64,000 nucleotides of DNA from positions 6,419,860-6,483,859 of the forward strand of contig CAJINV010000001.1 of assembly GCA_905178155.1 (NCBI GenBank), written 5' to 3'. Under the pieces are notes generated by a model. It did not search any database. It worked only from the letters and a program-made list of their open reading frames with translations, and was not told the origin of the DNA. Shown here piece by piece: positions 43,701-64,000 of the stretch. Position 1 is the stretch's first letter; every line of letters starts with the position of its first letter. A program made the position numbers and the translations under genes. Source of the stretch: Amoebophrya sp. A120. Its lineage: Eukaryota > Protista > Dinoflagellata.

Positions 43701-46700
43701 GACCAGGTCAATCTGCAGGAGGATGATTTGAAGCGGCTGCGGAGTCTGATCACATCCAACGTGTCGGCGTTGAAGTTTGACGACTTGAGCGAGCAGGCGA
43801 AGACGAAACGGGACCCCGCGGCGATGGAACAACTGACTCCGATCTCGCGGAAGGAAACCAGAAACAAAATCATCCAGTTGTTCCGCGCAATGAAGACGTT
43901 GAAAAACTTCTACGGTAGTTTGAAGTCTTTGACTTTGGGATGGACAAGGCCGATCCGAAATCGTACGAGTTGAAGTACAACGGAAACTGGATCATCCCGC
44001 GGGACTACACCAAAACGCAGCAAGAAGTTGCGGACGAAAAGTTTCTGCTGAACGAGTTGCCGAAGCTGATGACCCAGATCCACATGTTCACCGCCAACCG
44101 CTGCTCCGCGTTGACCCTCGCCGTGTGTCTGGCGGACAAGGATTTCGACGAAACGCCCAGCCTCGCGAAGTTCATGTACGTCTGCGACCGCGAGGAGAAC
44201 AGCTACTACGTCGAGAAGCTGACCGGTGCGGAACCGAAAGACGCGAAGGACCGGATCCAGAAAGCCGTGGACCAGGACCTGCTCTTGTTGCCGCTGTACG
44301 CGAAGCATGACTGCTACGCTTTGGACGAAACCGTGGATGTGCGATCCAACTGGGGGTCGAAGCCCGGTAAGAAGACTTCCAACAAAAAGGGAAAGAAGGA
44401 CGCGGAAGCGGAGGTGAAAGTGCAGGTACTACTCCTAACTTAGTTGTTTTCTTTTCAGTTCGAATCTGACGGAACATATTTAGTTTTTCACTTTTTTGCT
44501 CGCATAGCAAAATGCTTCTTGATTTGAAAATGAAAATGAGTTCACGTGTGCGCGCGCGCACGTGCGCGTGCGTGCACGTGGGTGCGCGTGCACATGCGTG
44601 CGTGCGTACACGTGCGCGCGCGCCCACCTGCGTGCGTGCGTACACACGCATGCATGCGCGCGCGCGCCCACGTGCGCGTGCATGTGTGCGCGCGCACGTG
44701 TGCACACGCGCGTACATGCGTGCGCGCGCACACATGCACACGTGCGTGTGCACGCGCGCCCGTGCGTGCACGCGCGCGTGCGTGTGCGCGCCCGTGTATG
44801 CGCGCGCACGTGCGCATGCGCGTGTTGGTGTTCGTTTTCATTTTCAAGTCACAAAGAACTGCGCTATGCGAAAAAGAAAAAGTGAAAACCAGAATTGTTC
44901 TGCTTTTGTCTGACTCGTTAATAGTTTTTTAGTTTTAGTTTTACTTTTACACACATTTTTATTTGCAAACTTGTGATGCAAAAAAACAGAACTGAACTTA
45001 CGACGTTGCCATGTGACTACGCATGACAAACATCGAAAAAAAAACCAGGTCAAAGAAGGCCAGGGTGCCGAAGAGGAGGAAACCGAGGATCAGAAAAAGT
45101 CCCGCGAAAAACGTGAGAACGTGCTGAAGAGCGATCCGAAGAAGGCCAGCCAGGAGTTCTTGAAGCAGAAGCCCTTCCGATCCCCGCTGTGGTGCTCCGC
45201 CGTGCCCAGTGAGTTCGCGTCGCAGACGGAGGGGGAGATGCAGAGGAACGCCGAACGTGTCCCCCGCCTGCGTATCCTCGTGAAACCCGACGCAAACATG
45301 TACAAACCCCCGACCAACGACGGAGAGGAGTTTCAGCTGGACACGCTGTTTTACTATCCCCAGAAGAAGAAGCTCGGCGGTGACTGGGACTTTCAGGACG
45401 ACCTCACCCACACGTTGTCGCTCTCGTAAGATTTGACTTTTTGAAAAAAATTGACATTGACTTTTTTCACAGCATCACAAACGCATAAAAAGCACAAACA
45501 GATCTGAAATGGCACCGCGTGACAGATGCAACATGACACCAACACTCTTTTCAATCCATTTCGATGCGAGCACTATTAGCATCTTCATTGCCGCTCCACC
45601 GCATGACAAACGAGAATCACAAACAATGCATCACAGCAGGCGCGTGAACTATTTTTGGAAACCGGCCGACAACAATAAAGTCGACCGGTTGACCATGATC
45701 TCGTGGAAGACCTGCGAAGTCCCCTTCTGGGGAAAGGATGGGAAGAAGACGTCGATTAAGTTTCAAGTCCCGGTGGAGGCGTCGGTGAAAAGCAGTGGAA
45801 ACCCAAAGAAGGCGAAGCAGAGCAACATCTTGTGCTGAACCCCAAGAGACTACGGGTATGGAGTCGGAGACGGACGGATACGAAAATCAAAATTAATAAA
45901 CAGGTAAGCGCGCCTACTCATACACCTACCTCTACTTTAGATTTAGTTTAAGTCTTTGGCTTCTTGTTCTTTTAGTTTTAGAAACCACGCGAAGCTTTGA
46001 AACATCTTGCGCGCGACTTCTCGTCGCGTTCAAAAATTTTTGGTTTTGTAGCGGCTTCTTTTCGGTCGTGAAGTAGACACTTAGACTCAAGCCCCGTTGT
46101 TAGTCAAATCCCAATCCCAAAAGCAGCACCTACTCCCACTGACTCCCAGTCCCACACCATCACAAATTGAAAAAAATACGCAGGTAGTCGCAACAGCACT
46201 ACGGCCATGAAGGTACACAGCAACGGTCTTGCTCTTCGTGGTTTCAAGACTCTTCTTCTCGACATGAGCATCAAGAAAAGCTACCACAAAAACGAACTGC
46301 TCTTCCACGACGAATGCAAGTGATCGACTATTTTTCCTACCTGCTGCGGCTGCGCGGTGTTGGTCAAGTTCTTCTTTTTGGAAGCAAAGGCGCGGAGGGG
46401 CGATGGCGGTTGATCGGTGGGAAATGCCACGCAACCTAGGAGGAGAAGTTTCCAACTTTCACAAAGCTGCAGCCTACCGGTTTACTTTCGATCTAGATCT
46501 AGAAGCAAAAAAAAACATGAAGTTCTTTTGTCTTGCACAGTGACAATTCAGATTGCGTTTCGATTTTTTACGTTCGCGTTAGATTTCAGTTTAAAGCTTG
46601 AATCTCAGGAAGCAAAGCCTTCAAAGTAAAAACTACTTACGACTGGTCGAGCCCCAGATCGCCGACCTAGATTGTGACTTACGTTTACGCTTACCGCTAC

Positions 46701-49700
46701 TGTCAGTGTAGCTCGACTTCATCATTAGTTTTAACTTTTAAGTTTGTGTCTGTCACCGACTCAGTAATAGTCTTCAGCTACAGTTTAAATTTCAAAATCT
46801 AAATCATCATCCTCATCAACAAACAGCTTGTTTGTCAGCAGCGGCATGCTTGGCCTTTTGGTCAAAGCGTGGCCGTGTGCTTTTTCGCTTTATTGAAAAA
46901 ACAAAAAACAAAGCTACAACCTAATCTTCGTTTCCACCTCCGGGTGTAGTCATGCGACGGCTGCTACTTGCCAATCATCAGGCCCTCGGGTCGTACTAGT
47001 ACAAGTACTAGATCTAGAACTAATTCTAAGACAGGCAAAACCAAAATTAAAATTTTCAGGAAGGCGCTAATTTTACCCCAAGCGGAAGAGGAAAGGTTGA
47101 ACAAAATCAAAAAGCGAGCGCGAGAAAGAAATCCGCTGCACCTCTTCCAGTATCTTCCACTACTAGAACTAGGAGTTTCGAACTCGATGCAACTTGTCGA
47201 CTTTCGCTTTCATTCTTTGCGACGGCAAGATTGAAGTAGAGGCGCATCTTCACCAATTGCGATGCGGATGCTTTTTTCTTCGACGAGGTGGAGGCTCGAA
47301 GATTTTGACTATGAGACTCTCCTTCTCAACCTTTAAATTTTGAATGTCGACCTGTACCTGTAGACTCTCGAAACCGAAAAAACAAGAGCCAAAAAATGGG
47401 CCGCGTTCTCACGATGCAATGAGAACGACGCGAAGATGTTCGCGCTCGTGATCGCCTGGCAGTTTCTGAAAAAAGCTGAAACTTAGAGGGAGATGGATGG
47501 ATGAAGAATGTGAAATCGCAAAGGAGATCAGACCGTGTCTAGATCCAAAAAAAAGAAAGCCGAAGTTCCGCCAAAGACTGGAAGTTGATCGCCTGGATCC
47601 AAAGCAGGCGACCGCTCAGCTCCGAGGGGTCTAGAAGATCAAGCGAAAAAAAAAAAACGTGGATCGCCTGCTTCCACCTACAAGCTTGGAGTTTTTGGAT
47701 CTCCTTGCACTGTGCGTTTTGAATTTTTCCTCATAGTTTTTTCTTTTTCATTTCAAACTGTCAGGGACCAATGTACTTCTACTTGTGCCTGTAGGTCGTT
47801 ATCGCTTTCGTCTGAGTTTACTCTAGCTTCTCGCTTCCCTCCACAGCAAAGAAAGTAGTTGCCCTTCCGTCTGAGTTTACTTTTTTTCTTTTCCCTCGAA
47901 CCTGATCTCGGGTAGCGTAACTTCGATTCCGATCTCTACGTTTACTTTCTTTTTTTGCAAAAGCAAAAAAACAACATCAAAATGTCGGACCAGAAAGCGA
48001 AGCTGGTGAAGCTGGGCCCGAAGTGTGCCGTCGATGATGACGAGGATGGTCCGCCGCCGGGAGGGGTGCGATTTAGAACCATACACGGGGCAACACGGGC
48101 GGAAGTGGAAGAATTACACAAAGACGAAATCAACAAATGGGTCCCCGCGAAGAACGGACACATGAAGTGCATTATGTTCTTGGATGATGTTGACGAAGAT
48201 GTCCCCGGATGCACCCAGGCGGAGATGTGGGTACTAATGCTGGCGCTTTTGTTTTTTTGTTTTGCATTGAGAGGGATTTTGCGTTTTCGAGTCGAAGTCT
48301 AAATTTCAAACCTAGCAGTGGGATCAAACCGACAAGGAGGAGAACTTCGTGGACAACCTTTTTGGGATGTTACGGGGCCAGACCAAGCGGAGAACCGGGC
48401 CAGAACAAGTGGAAGTGGATGCGTCCGAGATGACGAAACAGGAGCAGCCGGAAATCATCAACCTGATTTTCAACATGGCGGAATCTGATGATAACGCGGC
48501 CTGGGCGAAGGCTTTTTTGGTGGACGAGGCGACCGGTGGTGCTTACGGATCAGCTTCTTCTTCTTCTTCGACTGGTTCCGGAATTACTCCTGGTGGAGCT
48601 TCTTCTTCTTCGCGCCCGAACAACGAACAGATGGAAGAAAAGACGAACGACGACGATGCGAGCGAGGAGATGGAGGTGGAGGCGGAGAGCACCCCGACCA
48701 CCAAGGCCGGGAAAAAGAAGAAGAAGCAAAAGACCAAGAAGTAGACATCTTTCACCTGTTCAGCGCGTCGAGCTCGAACGGAAAAGCGTCGGAATCGGCA
48801 CAACAAGTGCTTCTTCTACATCTTCAGCTTCTAACTCTACTGCTAAAACAAGAAGCTCAGACTTTTGATGACGCGAATGGCAACGAGAAACAAGCACAAG
48901 TAGATGAAAAAAAAACGACAACGAAATGCAGCCGGAGCTGTGAAATTTTTTATGGGTGTGTTCGGCGCTCCCTTCGGTGTCTTTCTCCTTCGTTGATGGG
49001 TGTCATTGGTCTGACGATGGTTCATCGCGTCCTACGACATTGCCCCGACCACTCTGACCTTCCACTGAAGCCGGCGCAAAAATGGAATGCAACAGTCGTC
49101 AGGACCGACGTCGTTATATAAATTCAGGGGCGTGGGCATCCTTCTAAACACCCACTTTTCGCATGCCAAAGCTCAACATCAAGATCAAAATCGTATTGAG
49201 AAAAAGTGGCAAATCGGTTCAAAAAAAATAGAAGTGAAGACGTTCACGAACAAAGATAATCATGCCAATTTTCATAGTTATAAAAATTGATAGTATTTCA
49301 AAGGGTAGTGGTTCACTTATAAAATGAGGAAAGCTGAAGGTTTGTCCCACCATACAATTTGACCTATTCCAGTAGGACATTCGTACAAATTTAAATTATG
49401 TGTGTGTGTGTGTGTGTGTGTGTGGTCGTCGATGCGCATATTCCAATAACCGCCAGCGTGCTGTATAATGTTATGCTCGACGCTAGTACGGAGGATCGAT
49501 GCTTAAACCAAAATTTCACTGGCTGCGCCCATCACGCACGACTGCACTTTTCAAAGCACCACTGGACTCATCTTCCTCACAAGGTATTGGACGGAACTTC
49601 GCGCATTGTTTGCGAATGAACATCGGCGAGGTGGAGATGCGACCGCACACCGATCCGGACACCGGTTTGCTGAATCCGCAGTGGCGGGAACTGGGCCATT

Positions 49701-52013
49701 TCGAGATGCACGCTTTGTCCCCCCTTCCGAAAAACGTCGACGACGAGCTGTATCTGATCTACCAGTTGGCGGGTACCCCCGTGGTCGACTACCTCCGCCA
49801 GCAAACGTACCAGAGCAATAGCAGCGGGCTCGGGTTGGTGCGCGAGCCGGAGATCTATGCATTGGAAATTTTCCGTATGTGTACAAAATGCATGACAAAT
49901 TTCCCTAACATGGAGTGTCCAACTTGTCATGCTGAGGACCAAGATTGAAGAGAAGGAAAGTTTTGTCATACATAGCATTTGTACGTCGTGTACGGGAAAT
50001 TTACTGTGGATAAGACCATCCCGATGATGCTGCAACAGCTGGTCTTCGCGGTATCGTTCCTTCGCGAGGAGGTAAAAGCGGTGCATCATGACTTGAAAGC
50101 CGAAAACGTTCTGTGGGACGATATGCATTGCAAAAGCATCGCACTAGTTTGATTTGCATGACAAACCTTTGGGAGAACGAAAACGGAATTTCTCATGCAG
50201 ATTCAATTAAGAGCCTGGTGATCTGTCATGCAAGATTGCGAGTACTACAAGTGCAATACTTTTGCCCAGGATAGAAAAGACCGAGAAGCGAATCGTCCTG
50301 ATCGACTTCGGCTCCATGTCCGCACTTCTGTCCGAGGACGAAGTCCGCGAACACCAGCAAGCCTGCTCGATCCGCATGGTGCCGCGCACCGCGGAGGACG
50401 ACGCGTTGGACGAGGATTTGATGAACGCCGGGGGCTTTGGCGACGGGGGGATCATGTCCAGTTGCGATTGCTGCACATCAACCAGCGGAGTTGGTGGTGC
50501 TTCTTCTAAACGCGAAGGACAGCATGGATTTCGCAACATGGAGATGGACCTCGACGAGGTGCGGTCCATCAGCTACCAGCAACAGCAAGAACAGTCCTCC
50601 CTCTTCTGCTGCCCCACGACCGGCAGCTCTTGCTGCGGCCCCTCGGCGAAAGATAGGTTTATCATCGATGGGCAGGATGTGGGGAGAACACACAAGTCGG
50701 CCATGGTTGTGAGGGACCACGGACGGCGGCTCGATCGAACCGACGGCGACAGAAAACGGCAAATTATCCGTGGCCTCGGGCACACCCCGCACTCGATTCA
50801 GCAGTGGACCCCCGGATTCGCGCCGATAGAAAAGGAGGAAGGAACCAGTTTGCAGGCGATGCAGACCGCGAGCTCCGTGGACATTTTCGCGTTGGCGACA
50901 CTGATGGGGCAAATTTTACTGGACGGAACGAACCTGATCATGGCACACTACATGCAATTCGACGGGTTGACCAGGAGCGCGACGGCAAGGTTAGCTGCTG
51001 GCGGGGAGAACGCGCCTGCCCGATCCTCTACCTCCGCGTCTACTTTTTCCGGCGCGCGGGTGACGCCACAGGGTCAGCCGGTACAACGGGGCCAGCCACG
51101 CGAACTTATCATTCAGGACCAACAGCAGCAGCCGGAGGTGCAAGTCATCAACTTGACACCCTGCTGCCCGAAAGACAGCCAAGGATTTTGCAGTCCATTG
51201 TGCTGCATGACGCCAACCATGACGATCGACTGCACGGAGTGCTGTGGAATGTCTGCAGAGAAGCAGCTCGAGCTGTACGGAAACGGCAACAAACCGGTGG
51301 GGTCGCGGTTCCTGGCGGACGGACACAAGACCAAAAAACCGTACAAAATCTTCTGGGCCGAACTGTTCGAAGATATCGCGGACTCGGATATAGGTCTCAA
51401 GAAGCTGTACATCACGCCGCGCGTGAAGACTCGACAGGGCGCCGGTCCGCACATCCCGCCGGGAAAAAGCAACGCCGTACTGCAGGCATTGGTGGGGACG
51501 CTGCCGTCACAGTGGACGGATGCCTTCTTCATCTTTTGGCCGCGGTTGTTTTTGAGTCACGAAACGCGCGTGAACGCGTTCACGATCATGGCGATGTCGG
51601 TCTTCCAGGAGATCGATCCAAATACCGGACGCTGGCGAGCAGTAGCACAGGGCGCCGCGGGAAGTTCTTCAACACCCGCCGGTGGTGCTGCTGCTGGGCA
51701 GTTGTTCACAAAAGTTGTTGGGGACCGACGCAGCGGCCCCATGGGCGGTGCAAGTGGACCTGTGCAGCAGGGTTTTCTCGGCGCAGCGGCCGCGGCTGGT
51801 GGAATGAACAGTCGTGGCGCTGTTCAGGTACAAGAAATCGATCCGCGGGACCCGAACCGCGGGGCGAAGTACCAGCAATTTATCATGACCATGGAAAACG
51901 ATCCCAATGGTCCCGTAGGAAACTGCAACTGGCTAACGCGCTTGCTCTACAGCTGTTGTTACTCAACCGAAGCAACAGGAAACACGCAGGTGCAGTGGCA
52001 ACAGAATCAGTGA
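31799..52013 (+). CDS. Protein kinase with signal-peptide-like N-terminus, split by a 16.7-kb transposon-containing intron; exons ~31799-31912, 32079-32916, 49584-49852, 50015-50121, 50279-52013
   Basis: N-lobe LGRGTSAVV, VAVK and alphaC E at ~32690-32880; C-lobe HHDLKAEN, IDFG, TPGFAPIE, VDIFALA after 49584; GT(32917)-AG(49583) phase-1 join reads RLYKG-IGRNF. Confidence 0.8.
31913..32073. mobile_element. IR introner in kinase gene; TSD CGAAA; ends related to 12707-12916
   Basis: TATCACAGGAAAAAGTGTTAACGTTTGCGG vs right revcomp TATCACAAGAAAAAATGTCAACGTTTACGG; CGAAA at 31908-31912 and 32074-32078; removal gives SAATK-MIP. Confidence 0.92.
33304..33392 (+). repeat. Left TIR of giant hAT element
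   Basis: TATGGTGGGACAAACCTTCACCCTTTCCTCATTTTATAAGTGAACCACTACCCTTTG... matches revcomp of 49267-49354 with few differences. Confidence 0.95.
34630..40462 (+). CDS. hAT-like DDE transposase, ~1,835 aa; exons 34630-36310 and 36636-40462
   Basis: Ordered motifs CSPDAT (D1), VTSDSGSDVKKG (D2), CQLHLAH (CxxH), VRTRWLS (TRW.S), ASSQIAESLSS (catalytic E region); phase-1 GT-AG intron 36311-36635 fuses the 580-aa and 1339-aa ORFs. Confidence 0.8.
39805..40082 (+). repeat. GC-rich, largely purine/pyrimidine-alternating repeat read in frame as an AGAQ/AHVH tract of the transposase
   Basis: GCGCGAGTGCGCGCGCGGGCGCACAGGTGGGCGCG... with no stop or frameshift. Confidence 0.85.
41667..45838 (+). CDS. Multi-exon cargo gene of the giant element with ParB/Srx-like N-terminus; apparent frameshift near 43915 (possible pseudogene)
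   Basis: Exons ~41667-41946, 42209-42363, 42639-42713, 42940-~43092, ~43312-43407, 43587-44425, 45049-45425, 45640-45838; IPLTEVHV...QNR...LKHAM...AFLHGGHTILAL pattern recalls the ParB-N core. Confidence 0.55.
44460..44918. repeat. Foldback element in cargo-gene intron: imperfect ~80-bp IRs around a ~280-bp alternating (GC/GT/AC) tract
   Basis: TTTTCACTTTTTTGCTCGCATAGC...TTGAAAATGAAAA vs TTTTCATTTTCAAG...GCTATGCGAAAAAGAAAAAGTGAAAA; core 44543-44824 is CGTGTGCGCGCGCGCACGTG... Confidence 0.8.
47982..48744 (+). CDS. Small acidic cargo protein with C-terminal poly-Lys (NLS-like) tail; exons 47982-48230 and 48316-48744
   Basis: Phase-0 GT-AG intron 48231-48315 joins QAEMW-QWDQTDKEENFVDNL; ends GKKKKKQKTKK*. 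Confidence 0.65.
49267..49354 (-). repeat. Right TIR of giant hAT element
   Basis: ...CAAAGGGTAGTGGTTCACTTATAAAATGAGGAAAGCTGAAGGTTTGTCCCACCATA followed by TSD CAATTTGA. Confidence 0.95.
49399..49424. repeat. (TG)n microsatellite
   Basis: Uninterrupted TG dinucleotide run in the kinase intron. Confidence 0.9.
49856..50012. mobile_element. IR introner in kinase gene; degenerate TSD AGATC/AGACC
   Basis: TATGCATTGGAAATTTTCCGTA vs right revcomp TATCCACAGTAAATTTCCCGTA; removal joins VREPE-(T/I)IPMMLQQ. Confidence 0.8.
50122..50273. mobile_element. IR introner between kinase HxDLKxxN and DFG motifs; degenerate TSD
   Basis: TATGCATTGCAAAAGCATCGCACT vs right revcomp TATCCTGGGCAAAAGTATTGCACT; removal joins ENVLW to TEKRIVLIDFG. 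Confidence 0.78.
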
Positions 52014-53078
52014 AGGTGGGGAAAGAGATACCGATACCATCTGAGAGGTGGAGGTGGTGGGCGGCTAGGATGGAATAAAGACCAAGCTACAGCTAGCTCC
52101 TCCTACTTAATGAATATGTATTTCAACGACCAATTTTTGTATTCATGTTCTTACTTGTTTTGGTCTACCAAATAAATGTTGAAGAAGTCTGGTTTATTTT
52201 CAGTCTGCAATCTGAATCAGTTGTTTCTCTTTCTGACGTTCACGTTGCGTCTGGTGACTTGTTTTTCACGACCTGGCGACGTTTCTCTTGAGAAAATATA
52301 TGCACCGTGCGCAGTGCATGTGCAGTGTCAATGAGAGCGGAGCGCGCAGAAATTTTCCTAATGATTAGTGTGTGTTTTTACACTCGCCAAACTTCCTACT
52401 TGCTATAGTCTTTTCTTTTTGCGAAAACTCAAACCTATGCCGGTGAACGAGAATAAAGTTGTCTGTGTTGAAGTTGTCTAGAGGTAAAAAGAAGAAATTG
52501 AAATTGGCCTAGTTGACGAGGTCCCCTACCGCACATGAACAAAGTAGTTTCGGCTTTTCGGTCAAAAATAAATTGCCGCAGATTGGTGCTACTCCGATGC
52601 ACATGCAGCCTTGTGTCTCCCTGCTCTCCACAAGGCGTCATTGGAATTCGGTAGTTTTTGTCGGGCGGCCTCTCATCTAACTACGAACCGACTAGCAGGA
52701 AAGTAAGGATCTTGATCTTGCAGGAGATTATGATGGCGAAAGAAGTAGCTGATAATTGAAACTGCAGCTTCTCGCATGCGTAGGCTTCGAGCGAAACATC
52801 ATCATGAGAGCGAAGGTTATACCTCTGTCTTCATAGCAGACGAGTGAGCATTATGAGCATCTCCTTTACTGCTTATGGATAGATGAGTATGGCACCCATC
52901 AGGTCCTCTATTGGAACGAAGTCGCTGGCCAACGCAGCATTGTGTTGGTTGATGCGGCCGCAATCTCCCGTAACTAGAACAATACCAAGCCACTGAACTA
53001 CCACATTGACATTCTACCTTCAGACACGAGTCGTAAACAGTGATAGGAACGCAAAAAGCACACATACCCTACACCATC

Positions 53079-54190
53079 ATGCTGCTCCAGTCGGGCGCCT
53101 CTAAAGAGGCACTGCGCACGCTGATCGTGGGAGGCCGGGGTGGTATCGGGACGGCGTATGGAAAGTTCTTCAACCCTGCGAACACGGTTGTCACCGCGTC
53201 AACACCGAAAAAAGTCGAGGAGCTGAAGGCCAAAAAGTTTGCCAACGCGCTTCAGTTGGACTTCAACCAAGAAGCACACTTCAAGAACTTGTCAACGGAG
53301 CTGAAAAACATGGATTTCGTTCCCGACCTTGTCATCAACTGCACGGGCGTACTCGGCCTGCCACACACGGACCCAGCGAAAGCGGAAAAAGGCGAGATCG
53401 TTCGGCCAGAATCTTCCGTGAAAAAGATAACGCCCGACATTCTGCAGAGGACGTTTCTCACCAACGTCTTTGCCAACGCATTGTTGCTGCGGGAACTCGC
53501 CTCGGGCATTTGGAGCAAAGCGCCGAAGGACCACCCGCTTCTTTTCGCGTCCTACTCCGCCCGGGTGGGCAGTATTGCGGCAAACGAATTGGGTGGGTGG
53601 TACAGTTACCGGGCCTCTATCAAATGCAAATATGTCTGGGTCTGGAAGAATGCGCGATTTGTCATGCTGCTTTTCCATGACCCATGGCATGGGGTTTGGA
53701 ATGCAGGACCTAGCATGACAGTTTCTGTGCGATCTCTCTCATGCCTATCCTGCATGAGAAAGTCCCTCCCGGCTTGGTCAAAACTGAACGACTTTTGGTA
53801 ATCATGCAACACAGATTTTTGCATGCTGCAGATTTAGCATGAAAAGTTGCAATGTTCCAGACCCAGACATTTTTACATTTGATAGCCTCGAAAGCGGCGC
53901 AAAACCAGTTGATCAAGACATCCAGCTTAGAGTTCAAGCGGTCACACCCGAAAGCGTGCTTGCTTGTCGTGCACCCGGGGACCGTGGAGACGACTTTGAG
54001 CACGCCTTTTGTTGGAAACGCGAAGAAGCAAACGCTCCAGTCAGAGGTCCTGGATGACGTGGAGAAGCTGTCGGGCTACTTTACACCCGACGTCGCCGTG
54101 CAACTGATGTGGAATAATGTTTTGAGCAAGGTCGGGCCGGAAGACACAGGGAAATTTCTCGACTACGCGGGCCAAGAAATTCCGTGGTAG
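53079..54190 (+). CDS. Short-chain dehydrogenase/reductase (C-factor/CsgA-like); exons 53079-53617 and 53890-54190
   Basis: GGRGGIG, INCTG, SARVGSI, GGWYSYRA|SKAA (YxxxK split by introner), VHPGTVET, GKFLDYAGQEIPW. Confidence 0.92.
53618..53884. mobile_element. IR introner inside the SDR catalytic YxxxK motif; TSD GCCTC
   Basis: TATCAAATGCAAATATGTCTGGGTCTGGAA vs right revcomp TATCAAATGTAAAAATGTCTGGGTCTGGAA; GCCTC at 53613-53617 and 53885-53889. Confidence 0.95.
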
Positions 54191-55014
54191 GTAGTCGGTT
54201 TTACTGCTCGACGCGATGCTTTATGTGTGGTGATGTGATGAAAAATTCTGATATATCCACTTCTAGAGATGAATGCCGCTTCTGGCATCTCGACATACTA
54301 GCCGTGCTGAAGTATGCAGCAGTAACTGGTTTCAGTGTCGAATATGTGTGCAGATCGAGATCCTCGCTTTGTTGAAAGAACAAACACCTTTCAATTCATT
54401 TTTTTGTACGGACGGCCCGCGCGTCGGCGTGGGCGTCGATTGCCGGCCTCCATAATTTGCTGAACTGAGATTCTTTTCCAAGTTTCACCGCGCGAATCAA
54501 GTTTTCCATTTTCGCCCTTTCGCAGTCGCAGATCGATTCTGTCACGCCGACGCATTTGCAGAAAAAGGAGAAACGCATGCTCCACAAAGGTATCGTCGAA
54601 ATCGTATAATTTCGAGGTGCATCATTGTCGATGTTCGGATACTGTTCGAAGAATTTGAATTTCACGAGAGTTGTAAAGTGGAGAGGAGGAAGGCGAGCGT
54701 TTGGCACGCCCGCCTATGTGGCGAGGCATTTCCTTAACGTAACCTGCGCGTGGAGGGAAGGAAATAAGGTGTACGACCCGTAGTTCTACGTTGCTCTCGT
54801 TTCCATTTGTTGATCCGCCTTTATTCTTTACCAGCTGCTGTTTTTAGAAGTTTTGCGCCAGCGTATTGTGCCAGCAAAAGGTGACTGGACTTGTTGTGCC
54901 TACCTTCCCTCTGAGTTATCGTCCGACGATGTTTCAGCCGACGTGCTAGAAGAACAATTGTTGCTACCTTTATTCTGTTCCGTTGCTACGTCTACCACGC
55001 AAGTGCAACACGAC

Positions 55015-58000
55015 ATGGCTTCGAGACCGAGCACGATGTCACCTCCCGGCAAGCCGGGCGACCGCCCGACTTCTTCCTCGTCTCTACCGCCGGCAGAGGA
55101 CGAACCCGCACCGCTGTCCAACTTTGCGCAATGGGTGCAGCGTGTCATTCTCGCGCTCGGGGTAACCGTTGGTGAAAAGGAGTTGCAGTTGGCCGGCATG
55201 GTGGAAGAAGCGACCACAGATACGGTTTTTGGATCGCTTTCCCTCGTTTTCATGATTCTGCAGCAAAACATTACAGCCTGGACAGACGTTAGAAAAGAGG
55301 CGGGTGATTTTAAAGTGATTTTATAGAGAGGGGGCGCGTTAGGTCTTTGATTTTCCAAGCTCGCCGGCCTTGCCTGCACTAGGCGCGTGGTGGGTATTTG
55401 CCTGAGTAGGCTAAGGAATTGCGGCGGGCACTGCATTGTGTCGGCGCTGTTTGTCCGGTGGATTTCGAAAAAAAACACGTCGCAAAAACATCGCGAGCAA
55501 CACGAAAAGAACGCGCTTTCAACACCACTGCGCTTTTCTTCTTTCGCTTATGAATTTGCTTCGTCGTTTTTGTGCGTGGATGTTGCAAAAGGCCAGCCAA
55601 AAAAAAACACCGAGCGCCATCGTGAATAATTTTAAACCGCATGCTACGGCGTCATCTTAAAAAAGCCGCTGTTTTGCGGGTCCAAAAAGTTGCACAAAAG
55701 TTGCTGGTGACTTTACAACAAAAAAAGATGCTTTGGCTCTCCATTTTGGAGCCAAAATATCGACCATAGCGTGCGGGTTGCCGGGACGCAGCCCGTAAAG
55801 TCACCGCAAAGTCACCCTAAAGTCACCGCTAAAGTCACCAACATCCGGACGGCAAAAATTCCAAACCCAATCCGCATTGCAAATTGCCGACTTGGCCGAG
55901 TAGAATTCGCATCGAAAAAGTGCCAATCTCGGTGGTAGTAGGGACATCGGCAAGACTTAGCGGCGTCAGTTTTGGTCTCGTGTGCCGAAAAAAGCAGCGC
56001 AAAAATTGAGAGCGCTCGCCGCGTTGCAAATTGCGCATTTTGCCTTCAGAATTTTTAAAAATTATGCCTCAAATGCCGATGGTATGGTGCTTGTTTTTTG
56101 GCCCTCCTTTGTCTCCTCTTGTTGGTATCTTCTCCTTTGCTCTCAGGGACAAAAGTAGAGAAATCTTCTGAAGGCCATGAGGCGTCTTTTTTTCGGCACC
56201 ATGCTTGAGAGTATAGCCCTAAAATCACTGGAAAATCACCTATAGAGAGTCTAACGGGTGTCCAAGCTCTAAGCAAAACAGCGACACGCGCGGCAGTCTC
56301 TGTCTGTACTACCTGGAAAATGTCCTGTACGCGCACCCAAATGCGTTGGCTTTATACTTCACGCCCGACATGGTCCCTATTCTGTTTTCCACCAGTGGCG
56401 ACGGCGGTGGAGATGACCTGCGTGCAGGGGTGCTACTCTGGCGGCTGCTGAAGTACAAGTACGAGTCCTCCGGGCAGACCTACCCGTGCGAATTGGAGGC
56501 GTACAAGCTTCTGCGCATTTTGGAAAAGAGGAACAGCACGAAAGTGGTTCGAAAATTTTCGCCCTCCTGCATCCGGTACATTCTGGTGAAAATTTGGGCC
56601 GACATTGAGCCATCCCGGCGCGTCGTGGAAAAATTATCGGACCGCCAGCGGCGGGAAGACGAGATGAATGGGAAGTTCAATAGCCCGGTAAACACCAAAT
56701 CTAAGCCTCAGCTCGCTGACGACCACCCGGCGGACGACTTGTCGTTCGTGAGGCCAAAGAAACAAAACACGACGGCGGTCACGAACCCCACGACCGTCAT
56801 GCTGGACGTCTGCATGCACTGGTTGGCGGAGACGGAGGAGCCGCCGGAGAGCAAAGCGCCGCTGCTGGAGCTGCTTCGATCGGTCGTCAAGGGCCAGAGC
56901 GCGGTGGAAATGACGTCCCAGCTCCTGACCCGGTTCTTCGCGCTGCTTTCCTCAACCGCGGTCACGGGGTCTTTGTCGGACGACCTGCAGTTTTCGCTCG
57001 CATTGGTCGACTGGGCGGAGATCGGGGCGATTTTACCCGCTCTGTTGCAGCCGTTTGGGGAGGACAAACTGGTCGCGATTTGGACGTTCCTCTGCACCAT
57101 GCACCCCGTGAAACTCCCCGAGCCACTGCAGATCAACCCGTCCTGGCACTTCTTCAAGGCGGAACAGCCATTAATTCGCTTCCAGAAGCTGCTCGCGCAG
57201 CACTTCTTCCAGCGGAGCTACCGTTTAGGTGGGTCAGCCTTGGCGGTGCTGCTGTCGTTAGCCACGACGGAACAAACCGGTGTCGTCGCCGTGCGTTTGT
57301 TGGACGAGCTTGGCGTCGCAGGAAACTACGAAACGTTTCTCCGGGCGTTGCGCGAGAAAGCGGCAATCCATTTGGAGGTTTTGGATGACGACGACGAGGA
57401 GGAGAAGGAGGAAGGGGGAAATTTTTATGCAGGTGGCTCGTCCATGTTTAAGAAAGGACCCGCCGCACTGATCCAGCAGATTGACGTCGCCTTGGGTGAA
57501 GAACAACCAGCACCGCCAGCAGCAAACACATCAAGCTTTAGACCGCGAAGCGAAAGCGAGCTGAATTTGCTCGGGCGAAAAATTCATCCATCCGATATAA
57601 TCGCCGGTGGGGGCGCCGCAACATCATCTTCAGCCGTTTTTGGAAATCATGAGCACCGGCCAAACAAGCTTTCGGCACTTTTCAGCGAGTGCTTTCAGTC
57701 CGTGCCGAACGCGGCGAGAAACACGTTCTTGCTGCAGAAACAGAATCAACACCTGCTCGCCGAAAAGCTGCGGTCTGCGAACCAGAACAAACTGAAGCAG
57801 TTGAACCAGCACGCGGTCGACCGCGGCACGCTGGAATTGAACGAGCTTTTTCGGGAAAATCTAGCGTTGACGCAGCAGATTTCCTGGAAACAGATGGAGA
57901 TCGCAAATGAAAACTTGAAGTCTTGGGAGAAACTGCAGAAGGGCATCGAGGAGGAGGAGAGGCAGAACGCCGCCTCGCCGAAAAAGCGGAAGCCCGCACC

Positions 58001-59108
58001 TCTGCCCGCCCAGTACCGCTTCATTTCGCCCGCCGAGGCCGGGCCGCAGATTCGGATGGGGCTGCCAGACGATTCCGCGAGCGTGCAGTTTGGGCAGTCA
58101 CGGTCGGGGATACGGAACAGCAACAATACCTGCTTTGTGAATACGGTTTTGCAAGCGTTATTCCACACCGACGCGTTCGTCTCGACCTTGTTTCGTTTCC
58201 GGCTCCGTCAGCCGGACCGGTCCGTCGACGAGGCGCAGTACCAGCTCGGGGCAGAACTCCTGCGGCAGTTGCAATTTTTGTTCGGCATGTTGCTGATCAC
58301 GGCGAGGCCGCACGTCGACATCGAGAGCCTGCTCAGCGTTTTACCCTCCGTCGAGTTTCCCAAGGGAGAGCAGCAGGACGCGGGCGAATTTCTGCGGTTC
58401 CTGTTCGACAAGCTCGGCGGGTTTCAGCAGGGCCTGATCCGGCAAAGTTTCGCGGGGGAGTTGAGCGAAGTCACGAAGTGCGCGGACTGCGGCTACGAGA
58501 AACGACGCCCGGAAACCTTCACGGAGATCATTCTGCCGGTGCCGGACGTTCCGGGGAAGAGCGTCCAGCAATTACTCGGGGAAAAGTTAGACCGAAAGCG
58601 GATGCAGGACGCGCTCACCTGCAGCCAGTGCGGCAGCAAAAACTGCCCTGAGACGTGGAGCGAGATCCGCAGCCCGCCCCGGCAACTGGTGATCGCCTTG
58701 ATCCGCTTCGATTTCCGCATGGACCAGGGGGGCTTGGTGAAACTGAAGACGCCGGTGCAGATCTCGCAGACGCTGCAATTGGGCCAGTTTGCGTACGAGT
58801 TTTACTTCAGTATCCAGCACTGCGGCGCCACCGCGGACTCGGGACACTACACGGCGTTTGGGAAGCGCAGCGACGTCAGCGCGAATGCCGGAGGTGGGAC
58901 GACCTACTGGAAATTCGACGATTCGCAAGTGAAACCCTCGTCCTGGGCGGAGCTCCAACAGATGGCGTCAGGGTCTTCGGACGACACGCCTTACTTGCTG
59001 TTTTACCGCTGCGCGTCCGCACCCGTGGAACCGGACCCCTTGCTGCCGGCAATGTACCTTGACATGTTGCAACAGGAAGACAGAAGGCAGATTCAAATGA
59101 CCAGCTGA
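55015..59108 (+). CDS. Ubiquitin-specific protease (peptidase C19); exons 55015-55270 and 56281-59108
   Basis: Cys box GIRNSNNTCFVNTVLQAL, EQQDAGEFL, His box HCGATADSGHY, WKFDDSQV; removing the 1-kb element joins ILQQN-SDTRGSL in frame. Confidence 0.9.
55271..56272. mobile_element. 1,002-bp non-autonomous TIR element with 8-bp TSD GCAAAACA (hAT-like), apparently acting as an intron in the USP gene
   Basis: Left TTACAGCCTGGACAGACGTTAGA...GGTGATTTTAAAGTGATTTTA vs right revcomp TTAGAGCTTGGACACCCGTTAGA...GGTGATTTTCCAGTGATTTTA; TSD at 55263-55270 and 56273-56280; internal AAAGTCACC x4 at ~55797-55840. Confidence 0.85.
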
Positions 59109-59261
59109 TTGTGGAAGTGCGAAGGCAAACTCGTTGTGCTACGAGTTTGGCCTCTGAAGGAATATCAATATGAATATTTCAATCGATAAGTTGTACAGCG
59201 CTATAATAAAATATGTTGACAGTTCCAGGTTGACAGTCGCTGGAACATGACGAAAACCTTA

Positions 59262-59519
59262 GAGCGAGGTAACAAATGTGCCGTTAACTCGCGCCCGCGA
59301 GTTAAGCCTCCGGCCGGCCGGCCGGGCGGTTAGCTCGCAGTTTGAGCCGGTCTCAACTTCTTAACCGACCCAATTCTCTCGGTTTGAGACCGAAGACTCT
59401 GAACCGGTCTCAACTTCTCTCGGTTTGAGACCGGCTCAAACCGCGAGCTAACCGCCCGGCCGGCCGGCCGGAGGCTTAACTCGCGGGCGCGAGTTAACGG
59501 CACATTTGTTACCTCACTC
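59262..59519. mobile_element. MITE, PIF/Harbinger (Tourist)-like, ~95-bp near-perfect TIRs, TTA TSD
   Basis: GAGCGAGGTAACAAATGTGCCGTTAACTCGCGCCC... mirrored at the right end; TTA at 59259-59261 and 59520-59522. Confidence 0.88.
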
Positions 59520-60319
59520 TTACAATAAAGGGCATTTCAATTCAAGTATGCGGGCCTCGCGATTGCAAGGCAGCGTGGTGACCCTGAGCGTCGATAGTGT
59601 TTTCTCAAAGACATTCGTGTCAAAGCACGCCGCTTTCTTCACAATGTAACTAAACGCGTAAGTACGAAAGTTCTTTCTCTTTGAAAAAAGTCTTTTTTAG
59701 TCTTTTTCTCGGTGACGGTGTTTCTCAGCTGCACAAAAGATCGAGACCATCGGTATTCCCGCAGAACAGTTCGTGAAAGTCAAAGCTTTTCGTCCCCCCG
59801 TCTGCGGTACGAGCGACGGTAAATCAGTTATCGCTCAGCGCTCCATTGCTGTCGGTCCTCCACTACTCGTTTCTATTCGGTTTTCTGTACGCTTCGACAA
59901 GATGTCAAAAATCGGCTGTATTTACGCGTCACTGAAATCGGAATGTACTAGATGAAGATGATTAGGAATAACAGGTGCAGGTCGGTTAGCATGGACTTGG
60001 ACATGACTTTCGGTTAATACGTTTCGCATACTTGTTGTTCATTCTGCGTGTGCTCCGGACCCGGAAGATGATATTGATAGTGATACAACGCATAACATTA
60101 ACAACTGCCATCCGTCCTCCACAACCACTCAGGATTCTTTCATTTTTTGTAGTCCTCCGTCTTAATCATTCGCAACATACGTTTATTTTTGCAAGTTTCT
60201 TTTTTCAATTGAATTTCAAGCAACTCCGCACCGAACTCCAAGACCAAGTCGAATTCATTTCACACATTATTACTTTCCTTCTGACTCGTTAAAATTTCGC
60301 GGCTTCGGATTCTTTTTGC

Positions 60320-63300
60320 ATGGGGGGCACAGCCTCTTCCCCGGCTGACCAGCCGCGTTTGAAGAGTTCTACTGGCACGAAGAATCAGCACCCGGGCTAT
60401 TCTGGCCTGGAAGCGGTCTCCGGCGACTACAGCGAGGAGTTTCTCAAGCGACCCAAGGGGAGAAACGAGCAACTCTTCACAAAGTCGATTTCTTCATTTG
60501 CGCAAGAGGAAAGGTACGACCCAAACATCGGCGCCGGGAAAGTCGCCAGCTTTCAGGACGAACGAAACCCGGCATCCGACAACCTCGACGCCTTTCCGTA
60601 CGAGCCGGAGGAGCGTTTTGACTCGGAGTACGAGGCTTCACAGTTTCTAGCGCCCGCGTCGTGGTCGTACAGCACCAAGCAACAAAGCACAAAGGGAGGA
60701 CAGAGTCAGCGATCCGGCAGCGCACCGGCCTCGGGGCGCCAGGCCGCTGCAACAGGGTTCGTGCCCTCTGCTCCACGGCAGCCCTCGGAGCGCACGCGGT
60801 CTAAAGGAACCACTCTCGCTTCATCCGCTTCGCAGCCACCTGTTTCTTCGCAGCAGCAGAGCAGCACGCGCAGTGGCATTCCTAGTGGAACTACAGAGCA
60901 GCCAGCGTCGACTTCTTTCTCACACAGTGTTGGGATAGCTGCAGTACCAGTTGTTGTATCTGTTCCTTTCCAGCAGCCTCTAGGTGGATCTGTACATCAG
61001 CAGCAACCACTAGCGAGTGGAAAGCCAGCCGCGGCTCCGGCGTCCTTCCGGAGCCGTTCTAGCGAAGTTAAGCGCGTCGAGCAGGCTTCATCTTACACCT
61101 CCGAACAGAAGAACGCGAAACTCTCGGTGACTGAGAGCAGTGAGAAGGCCGGCACTCCTGCTCCAAGAAGTCGATCGAGCGGGACCACAAGCTCAACACC
61201 AGCACCGGCGATTGTTCCATCCGCGCAGCCGCAGCGGTCTGTCGTCCAAGTAGCAGGAGAGCCAGCAGGCCCGTCCAGCGCGAAGCCCGCTGCTCCGGCG
61301 TCGTTTCGCACGAGTTTGATTGCAGGGGGAGGTACTAGTACTACCGCGGCACAGGTGGAGCAACAGGACAACAAGATGAATTCCGACGGGGCATTCCTCA
61401 CCGACGAGGACGCGTATGCTAGGATGCTAAATGCGCGTCAGTCGAATCCGGATGCGCCCCAGTCTCTCGTCCGCGCTCCGTCCGCCCGAAGCCGGGGTAG
61501 CAAAAGCAAAACATCCGTCGGAATGAACAACGTCGGCTTCGCCCAAGATCAGTTGAGCATGTCCCAAATGGAAGCTTTTAATGAAGAAGACGCGTACGCA
61601 CTGATGTTGAATTCCCGCCAGTCTGATCCCGGTGAGGCTCCGCAGTCCGCTGTCCATAGCGTCCAAAATGTTGGCGCGCCACAGTCAAACGCTGGGCGGG
61701 CAAGCAAAAACAAGGCATCGAAAAAACAAGCAACCATAGCGTCAGAGTTTGCACCACAAGACCCGAGCTCTGCAGGAGCTGTTCCGCCGAGTGCTGCTTT
61801 TCCGTTGTCCAACAAGACGAATAAGCAGTCAGTGTTTTTTTCGGCTAAAAACGAGGCGACGCTATCCATGTGGGCGGACAACCCTCCGTCGCTCAACCAG
61901 CTTGGCCCGGGCGGTCAGGCCGTAGCGCTCACGAGCGAGGAGGTGGATGCGATGATGCAAAGTGCTCGGGAAGAAAACTCGAAAAGCATGTTCTACAGCA
62001 GAGTGCCAGCGCCGGTGTCTATGAAAGGCAAAAATCAGGACCAGCCAGGCAGTGCCGACTACAATGCAGCAGCTGCCGTACCGGTACCAATGAGCAAGAA
62101 TTCAGTCGGGCTCGGCGGACCTGGGTCGGTGACCTCGCAGATCAAGGGTGCCGCCGCAATGCCTTCCTCTGGCGGCTTTCGCGGCGTCAGCACGAAGCCA
62201 ACCAGTCAAGCGCCGACGAGCGGGAAAGGGACAAAGAGCTTGCGAAGCGGCAATAAAATGCCAAACTTGATCCCCGATGACGCCACAAATCTGCAGAATA
62301 TGGGCTTCGACGAGGCCTCCAAGCACGATTCCTTCGACCAGAATTCGTATCTCAGCATGCAGGGAGCTTTTGCGAGGGCAGACTCGAAGCAAAGCAACAA
62401 AGGAGGCAAAAACATGGCCACGAAAGCCGGCCCGTCGAGCACGAAGTCCAACGTTTCCAATCCCGCCTACACTACGCAGAAGCAGACGCGGTTCATGAGC
62501 GACTCCAGTCTGGAATCAGCCCGACTAATCCCCGCAGGAGCCGTATCCCACGGAAAAACTGTCTCAGTCTCAACCTTTTGCAGACTCAGAAAGAACACGT
62601 CTGTCATGCGTCATATAGCAAACAACAGGAACAGAATAGAAAACACATGTAACATCAAAGACTAAGACTCCCTTTCTTGCATGTCCAGGGGGACCACAAA
62701 AAAAACTATCTCAATATCAATTAGGAAATGGCACAGCACATTCTGAGACTCGTGAGACAGCTTTGTCATCTTTCGATAAGTCGCCACTGGAGGGCTGAGC
62801 AGTGGCGGTCCTGGGAGCGTTATCGGGGCTCCGATCATGTCCTCGTACGGCTATCTCGGTATGCCGGTCAACCGTAATTCCAGGGGGATGCCGACGCTCA
62901 CGCCGGGAGGTGGCTATCCCGGGGGCATGATGACGTACAGCTACCAAGGACAGCGAAGGATTGGTGCCCGGGACGACGAGGTGCCGGAGCTGTGCTGTGA
63001 CTGCTGTGCCTTTTTCTGCGAAACCCGGGCAGATAGACGGGAGGTCCGCAGGCTACAGAGGCACGGAACGATGGAATCAGCTTACGTAAACCTCTCTCAG
63101 CTTTCATTTTTGTTTCCCTGTTCTTCTCGTTAGAATCTTATTAGGAAGTAGATTCTTGTTGCCTTTTCGAACTCGAGGTTTGGTTTCACTCACTTGAGAA
63201 GAAGTAGATTAAGGTGTGTGAAGATGCTCCAGACAAGTAGAAGTACGAGCTGAAACATAAATCATAATCATGTGATATTTTTTCTCAAACTCCTGCGACA

Positions 63301-63632
63301 AATCGAAATCACTATCACAGGCCGAGCCGACGAGCGAGCACACGGGTATGTGGCACTCGCAGTTTTTCAACGCACAGGCGGCGGATTTGAAGGAGTTGCG
63401 GCGGCTCGAGGAGTATGGTGTCATGATGTCACGCGTGTACGAGGGCGAGGACTATAACGAATTCAACCGGTACCACAATTCCTGCTACCGGTGCATCCTG
63501 GTGGCTCCCTGGCCAATGATCGTCCAGCTCATTTGTTGTTTCGTGGTCGCTATCGCGGTGCAGATAAGAATGGGACAGATGGGCAAACCAGACTACGGGT
63601 TTTGCGGTTGGGATTTTGCCGAATACAATTGA
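60320..63632 (+). CDS. Low-complexity Ser/Ala/Gln-rich protein with N-terminal MG (possible myristoylation), Cys cluster and C-terminal TM helix; exons 60320-62543, 62784-63085, 63321-63632
   Basis: 781-aa ORF joined in frame to ORFs 62837 and 63348; TM-like ILVAPWPMIVQLICCFVVAIAV. Confidence 0.7.
62544..62778. mobile_element. Degenerate IR introner; TSD AGCCG/AGTCG
   Basis: TATC...AACTGTCTCAGTCTCA vs TGAGACTCGTGAGACAGCT...GATA; removal joins IPAGA-ATGGLSS. Confidence 0.7.
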
Positions 63633-64000
63633 GTGGCTACTACTTCTTGCGCTCCATTGTCATGATCACTTTCGTCCGGAGCCTTCTGATAATTTGGCGA
63701 GTGAAGATTGATCTTCTTGTTGTAAAAAATGCGTCGCGTTTGACTTATTTCGGTGTAACGGTACAAAGCAAAAAATGTCGAGTACTTGCTCGTCATATTG
63801 TACAATCACGACATCAGTTTGAGACTGCCTAGGATTCATTATTTTCCAATAGATTTATAGCTGAGTGAGTTTTCCATTTGTGGTTTTTTTCTTACAGTAG
63901 AAGCAGATCCCCGCTGATCTTTTCATGCTTGTTGTTTTCGTTCATTACACATTTATTTCCATTTGCAACGCTGACTCAGGAGAAAGCGCACAGCTGTGCC

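Follow-up and report, generated by a model that had tools for sequence, protein, structure and literature searches.

The N-terminal coding region of a deubiquitinase (USP) gene of Amoebophrya sp. A120 carries a 1-kb non-autonomous terminal inverted repeat (TIR) transposon that is flanked by an 8-bp target-site duplication (TSD) and is absent from RNA, where it behaves as a 1007-nt intron with ends other than GT-AG. The most likely explanation, to which we assign a probability of about three in four, is that this insertion is removed through the same hairpin-guided, sequence-blind route as the small introners of this genome. The region analysed is a 64-kb window of A120 DNA, and all coordinates are window positions (Table 1).

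The element is delimited by its repeats. A direct-repeat search returned a 9-nt repeat, AGCAAAACA, at 55262-55270 and 56272-56280, and an inverted-repeat search returned an outer block of arm pairing (55271-55293 with 56250-56272; 23 nt, 83%) and an inner one (55303-55323 with 56220-56240; 21 nt, 90%). Counted by eye, 38 of the 53 positions of the full arms match. Arm symmetry (TTAsAGCyTGG...) holds only with an 8-bp duplication, GCAAAACA, identical at 8/8 positions on both sides. The ninth matching base, an A, doubles as the final base of the right arm, so the duplication is most naturally read as 8 bp, with symmetric TTA...TAA ends on the element. A 5-bp duplication was rejected for this element (2/5 positions match). 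By simple arithmetic, the chance of finding 8 perfectly matching nt directly against the two arm ends is ~4^-8. Within the window, the 21-nt subterminal block has no match other than itself and its inverted partner (0.00 expected, 100 shuffles). The stretch is a transposon-type insertion. Its imperfect ~50-bp TIRs, its perfect 8-bp duplication (9 bp if extended) and a fourfold internal array had been proposed in an earlier sequence-only reading of this locus, and all three are borne out, the array with a period of 11 and 3.8 copies.

Reverse-complemented, the array core AAAGTCACC gives GGTGACTTT, the 9-mer that also forms the subterminal GGTGATTTT. Of the nine exact matches to GGTGAYTTT in the window, the element holds seven, those of its left half lying on the + strand and those of its right half on the - strand; at one mismatch its share is 10 of 38. 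Inverted as they are about the element centre, these motifs are likely candidates for transposase binding sites. No open reading frame (ORF) longer than 98 aa was found inside the element, no Pfam match above cut-off was obtained among the 7 internal ORFs of 75-98 aa that were scanned, and an Rfam scan of the element gave 0 matches at E up to 1. Two sub-threshold Pfam matches in internal ORFs (16 and 14.5 bits, with cut-offs of 26 and 27) were treated as noise.

In an effort to follow the element from DNA into RNA, Logan contigs of three public runs, coded X1, X3 and X5, were compared with the window. X3 and X5 are two samples from one study, a study other than that of X1, and carry no label beyond “RNA?”. 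X1 has the profile of genomic DNA: depth is present in 30/30 bins of 44001-64000, mostly at 40-66 with spikes only at repeats, and its contigs cross both element junctions without branching there. X3 and X5 behave as RNA, with a depth of 0 at 44001-48669 and within the element, while X3 reaches 250-900 at 52.7-54.7 kb. Both samples contain a joint from 55269 to 56277, at depths of 26.2 (X3) and 27.9 (X5), with a shorter side of 255 nt in each and no other letters, and this joint is absent from X1. One letter is shared at the joint, so 55270|56278 fits as well as 55269|56277. The transcript contigs (3467 nt in X3, starting at 54728; 3412 nt in X5, starting at 54850; ends at 59199 and 59268) span from 5′ of the ATG at 55015 past the stop and match the window over 3.4 kb without a single difference. 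USP transcripts starting inside or after the element, the case that would speak against an intron here, are not seen among the X3 and X5 contigs. Three further runs of raw RNA reads, dated 2026 and labelled with the same species (X9, X10, X11), yielded 0 mapped reads across 3 kb and across 20 kb, even at highly expressed neighbours, and hence provide no test.

The protein record leads to the same junction. The reading frame from the ATG runs for 85 codons to 55269 and then into the element until a stop, and the USP reading frame (56223-59108) carries Pfam PF00443 (UCH, E 5.8e-32). A database search retrieved a deposited Amoebophrya sp. A120 protein of 1028 aa, P0003, that is 100% identical. 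Its junction sequence, ...SLVFMILQQNNSDTRGSLC..., consists of exon 1, one extra Asn and then the USP frame (ILQQNNSDTRG), in exact agreement with the 55269|56277 joint; the public gene model already contains this junction. The A25 ortholog retrieved in the same search (1127 aa) aligns collinearly over the junction (62% identity, 168 columns), and a single one-residue gap in A25 falls exactly at ILQQNNSDTRG. The gap fits a one-codon scar, for which it is weak support given how far the two proteins have diverged.

Keeping the frame needs a removed length of 2 mod 3, which 1010 and 1007 nt fit and 1011 nt does not. That the element acts as an intron, as the sequence-only reading proposed, is supported by the joint in two RNA-like samples, its retention in DNA-like contigs and the agreement of P0003. 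The reading had further predicted an in-frame fusion at 55270/56281 upon precise removal: the fusion is indeed in frame, but the joint lies 3 nt from the predicted one, 1007 nt rather than 1010 are removed, and one Asn codon is gained. Its observation that the only GC..AG pair at the junction is off by one and shifts the frame was correct, and an intron from GC(55263) to AG(56273), of 1011 nt, was rejected on that ground. By coordinates, no GT/GC..AG pair at this junction keeps the frame, and the ends differ from the canonical U2 type; ends other than GT-AG are supported by the X3 and X5 joint and by P0003.

The position of the cut was then compared with that in neighbouring introns, using offsets taken from the sequences themselves and from a minimum free energy (MFE) fold. 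Besides one canonical intron, the surrounding 20 kb contain four more joints that are seen only in RNA and have non-canonical ends. All four non-canonical neighbours are small elements with arms of TAT, seven variable bases and AAA, flanked by 5-nt duplications. A search of the window for TAT-type elements, anchored on TAT/TTA ends, found six, five of them with a perfect 5-bp TSD, as compared to 8/8 positions for the 1-kb element. The cut offsets of the small introners, 1 nt before the element and 4 nt after it (or 0 and 5), are fixed in two of the four and merely allowed in the other two. It is the imperfect duplications of 49854->50017 and 50120->50278 that allow their cuts to be located. 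The 1-kb element shows the same geometry, with cuts 1 nt ahead of the first base of its left arm and 4 nt past the last base of its right arm (or 0 and 5), despite its TTA arm start, its 8-bp duplication and its four to six times greater length. An MFE fold computed for the intron plus 15-nt flanks predicts a long terminal stem in which the two ends are joined by 45 end-to-end pairs, from 55271:56272 inward to 55332:56217.

The TAT-type introner at 53618-53884 (267 bp, perfect 5-bp duplication GCCTC) is skipped in X3 and X5, and the summed DNA-contig depth in its bin is ~211,616, as compared to ~43 in the flanks, which indicates a family with thousands of copies. Further TAT(N7)AAA-armed elements of 161-282 bp, with perfect 5-bp duplications, lie at 12707-12916, 26090-26355, 26422-26703 and 31913-32073.

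Together, these data are best described by a model in which removal of the 1-kb element would follow the route taken by the abundant small introners of A120. The cut sites would be measured from the stem base (1 nt 5′ plus 4 nt 3′, or 0/5), and would be read neither from sequence nor from the duplication. With 5 nt of the 8-bp duplication lost along with the element, 3 nt (AAC) are left, which adds one Asn codon and keeps the frame intact. The insertion may have been tolerated because 8 - 5 = 3.

Several points weigh against this model. The fixed-offset rule draws on three resolvable introns in 20 kb, and we estimate the chance of a coincidence among in-frame options at ~1 in 10-20. A120 introner families have automated TSD calls of 2-6 nt, with one call of 11 nt (fam99), in the family data of PMC12130899, and the Fig. 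3 legend of PMC7789003 calls splice sites variable relative to the hairpin. On the side of the reads, the run type “RNA?” is a guess, contigs are blind to unspliced molecules and minor junctions, and a common clone for the RNA and DNA runs is unproven, the link between them being 3.4 kb of contig identity with the window. Finally, X1 summed depth is 104-220 at 55510-56216, with the flanks and the leftmost 300 nt of the element both at ~43, which suggests that the right 700 nt has a few extra copies and the left 300 nt none, at ≥95% identity.

Because the published TSD calls vary and splice sites have been called variable, a universal 5-nt ruler is doubtful. In its most general form, the idea would be that all intron removal in A120 uses a fixed ruler at the hairpin base (0-1 nt 5′, 4-5 nt 3′), blind to sequence, family and duplication length. 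Any TIR transposon would then be an intron on arrival, only duplications of 5 + 3n would survive in coding sequence, and each insertion with an 8-bp duplication would add one codon. We regard this generalization as rather unlikely, with odds of perhaps one in four.

A real alternative for the mechanistic step is a relaxed spliceosome that removes transposon-derived introns without any measuring from a hairpin, the 1007-nt form being simply the in-frame option kept by selection. Nearly all spliceosomal proteins and the U2, U4, U5 and U6 small nuclear RNAs (snRNAs) are present in A120 according to the genome paper (PMC7789003), the families tabulated in PMC12130899 vary in both TSD calls (2-6 nt) and end dinucleotides, and a canonical GT..AG intron, 63085->63321, lies just 7 kb downstream. 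Against it speak the offsets in the 1-kb element, which equal those of two resolvable, unrelated small introners, and a junction that offers no frame-keeping GT/GC..AG pair; moreover, the account of A120 in PMC7789003 states that U1 snRNA was not found. This explanation is improbable in our view, though it is the best of the alternatives to hairpin-guided removal.

It is less probable still that the RNA-like runs derive from cells or an allele without the insertion, such that the joint would reflect an empty or excised DNA site. The run type is guessed, TIR elements can be polymorphic and leave footprints, and the joined form is 3 nt away from what a clean collapse of the duplication would give, a difference that an excision footprint could produce. 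Against this, X1 retains five other stretches of these 20 kb that X3 and/or X5 alone skip, among them a member of the introner family with a summed DNA depth of ~2x10^5; over 3.4 kb the transcript contigs are identical to the window; and the X1 contigs are unbranched at the junctions. We also reason that an ancestral site ...CAAAACAACAGC... would give the 8-bp duplication only with an extra 3-bp deletion. The least probable explanation of all is an artefact, either a reverse transcriptase jump across the hairpin or a contig misassembly: long terminal stems and flanking direct repeats do favour template switching, but the joint shares 1 nt and lies 3 nt from repeat collapse although a 9-nt repeat was on offer, both samples contain it at the depth of the whole transcript while the element itself has zero depth, and it leaves the frame intact with the A25 ortholog collinear over the junction.

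Table 1. Coordinates of the USP locus, of the inserted element and of the neighbouring RNA-only joints.
Feature	Position	Strand	Length	Remarks
5′ untranslated part of USP transcript	54728..55014	+		extent of RNA-like contig
Exon 1, coding, MASRPS...ILQQN	55015..55269	+	85 codons	translation; identical to P0003 N-terminus
TSD, left copy GCAAAACA	55263..55270		8 bp	9 bp with 55262 included
Intron as removed	55270..56276	+	1007 nt	ends AT..AA; equally 55271-56277, TT..AA
Non-autonomous TIR element	55271..56272		1002 bp	ends TTA...TAA; non-coding
Left terminal inverted repeat	55271..55323	+		two GTGATTTTA subterminal motifs
11-nt tandem array	55796..55839	-		3.8 units, each with AAAGTCACC
Right terminal inverted repeat	56220..56272	-		two subterminal motifs, inverted orientation
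TSD, right copy	56273..56280			final 4 nt AACA (56277-56280) kept in mRNA
Exon 2, coding with stop, N-SDTRG...QMTS*	56277..59108	+		ORF, P0003, RNA-like contigs
UCH/USP domain	58107..59006	+		Pfam PF00443, E 5.8e-32, residues 629-928 of P0001; computed from 56223
RNA-only joint	49854->50017		162 nt skipped	1 nt + TAT...ATA element + 4 nt (or 0 + 5); both=1
RNA-only joint	50120->50278		157 nt skipped	1 nt + TAT...ATA element + 4 nt (or 0 + 5); both=1
RNA-only joint	53612->53885		272 nt skipped	both=5; compatible with 1/4 offsets
RNA-only joint	62541->62782		240 nt skipped	both=2, short side 28 nt; compatible with 1/4 offsets
Intron, canonical GT..AG	63085->63321		235 nt skipped	short side 29 nt

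The length of the duplication had prompted a comparison with the hAT superfamily, with which the element shares an 8-bp TSD. The hAT terminal consensus is commonly given as YARNG, and 8-bp TSDs are also made by superfamilies other than hAT. The TSD-consistent ends of the element, TTACA and TTAGA, do not fit this consensus, and no transposase was found within the element (no ORF over 98 aa, and no Pfam match above cut-off in the 7 internal ORFs scanned); we rejected the hAT assignment, and the suggestion of an intermediate in size and TSD between small introners and full hAT elements is likewise not supported. The TSD length also fits fam65, an A120 family called Mutator with an 8-9-bp TSD, a length of 627 bp and GG/CC termini, as compared to TT/AA in the element (PMC12130899). 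Self-BLAST found no second copy within the window, and metagenome contigs scanned with an IUPAC pattern of both arms gave 0 matches. The element is probably low-copy.

More than 60% of A120 introns are non-canonical, and many of these carry 8-20-nt inverted and 3-5-nt direct repeats and are classed as introner elements (Farhat et al. 2021, PMC7789003). The intron sections of that paper report no transposases in A120 and describe the removal mechanism as unknown. The 1-kb element resembles these introners in occurring in the same organism, in its non-GT-AG boundaries, its border direct repeat, its lack of an internal transposase and its pairable terminal inverted repeats; with regard to the 8-20-nt inverted repeats that define the published hairpins, it has arms of 23 nt (83%) and 21 nt (90%) and 45 predicted pairs. 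The Fig. S23 legend places A120 inverted repeats 1-5 nt from splice sites, in agreement with the offsets measured here (PMC7789003). The 1-kb element differs from the introners in that paper in several respects. The direct repeat is 8-9 nt, whereas 3-5 nt is typical and the supplement plots 3-8, and at the actual cut only 1 nt is shared. The element is also apparently low-copy, and it leaves 3 nt of its duplication in the mRNA. As the published intron analysis was restricted to 40-1000 bp, a 1007-nt intron falls just outside it.

The arms of the 1-kb element differ as well, beginning with TTA where the published A120 motif is TAT(N7)AAA. In both arms (55271-55276 and 56267-56272), TTA is followed by purine-rich bases and a G, which is the motif given for A25 in PMC7789003. 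This likeness may be a hint that the two strains, which co-occur, share a family or have exchanged one.

Kilobase-scale TIR elements that serve as introns with non-canonical ends are also described among the 58 A120 introner families of Gozashti et al. 2025 (PMC12130899), most of which are “TIR DNA” and none of which is finally classed as hAT in supplementary file 8. One of them has an 8-9-bp duplication (fam65, above), and another, fam103, is ~1.19 kb long with a TIR of 16 and non-canonical 5′ ends in 24/27 cases.

Outside Amoebophrya, the closest parallels in the cited literature are of two kinds. The nonconventional introns of euglenids, as described in PMC11282704, likewise lack conserved border dinucleotides, have ends brought together by terminal inverted repeats and bear TSD-like border repeats; they range from tens to thousands of nt, their cuts are staggered relative to the stem, and their removal mechanism is given as unknown. 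Circular excision products are known for them. Euglenids are an unrelated lineage, and pairing there involves +4..+6 with -8..-6 (CAG/CTG), as compared to a predicted stem from +1/+2 to -5/-6 here. In the introners of Aureococcus (Gozashti et al. 2022, PMC9860276), as in the 1-kb element, insertion followed by splicing alters the length of the mRNA while keeping the frame, since what is spliced out does not coincide exactly with the element and a single copy of the duplication. Those introners use canonical splice sites and add 12 nt, or four codons, whereas here the sites are non-canonical and a single codon is added.

The surroundings of the gene offer a few further observations. A near-perfect palindrome of ~260 nt (59261-59520; 14/14 matching in sliding arms, GGCC-rich core) lies just 3′ of the USP stop, about where the transcript contigs end (59199, 59268), and may be a member of the “palindromic” element families of A120. 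All long ORFs of the window are on the + strand, for example 16333-25632 (3099 aa), 36362-40462 (1366 aa) and 60293-62665, a layout that fits the unidirectional gene clusters reported for Amoebophrya. The gene or genes at 60009-64000 have a depth of ~370-700 in X3 and ~0 in X5 (~510 and 0, respectively, at 60.7-64 kb), while USP is equal in the two (26 and 28); expression of this region thus differs strongly between the samples.

The sequence-only reading also suggested that varied TIR elements can be spliced out in this organism, which is already published (PMC7789003; PMC12130899, supplementary file 8), as are hairpin introners in A120, including TIR families with 8-9-bp duplications (PMC7789003, PMC12130899). 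New in the present case is an apparently low-copy, TTA-ended element of 1 kb whose duplication is 8 bp long and whose cuts follow the geometry of introners bearing 5-bp duplications. It shows that non-canonical introns in A120 can exceed 1 kb, past the size window of the original analysis. Collapsing the duplication and measuring from the hairpin predict the same outcome where the duplication is 5 bp; for one of 8 bp they diverge, and the one-codon scar left here argues for stem-measured cutting. As the 1-kb element follows the hairpin geometry and leaves this scar, the rule becomes testable genome-wide, and such insertions can lengthen proteins.

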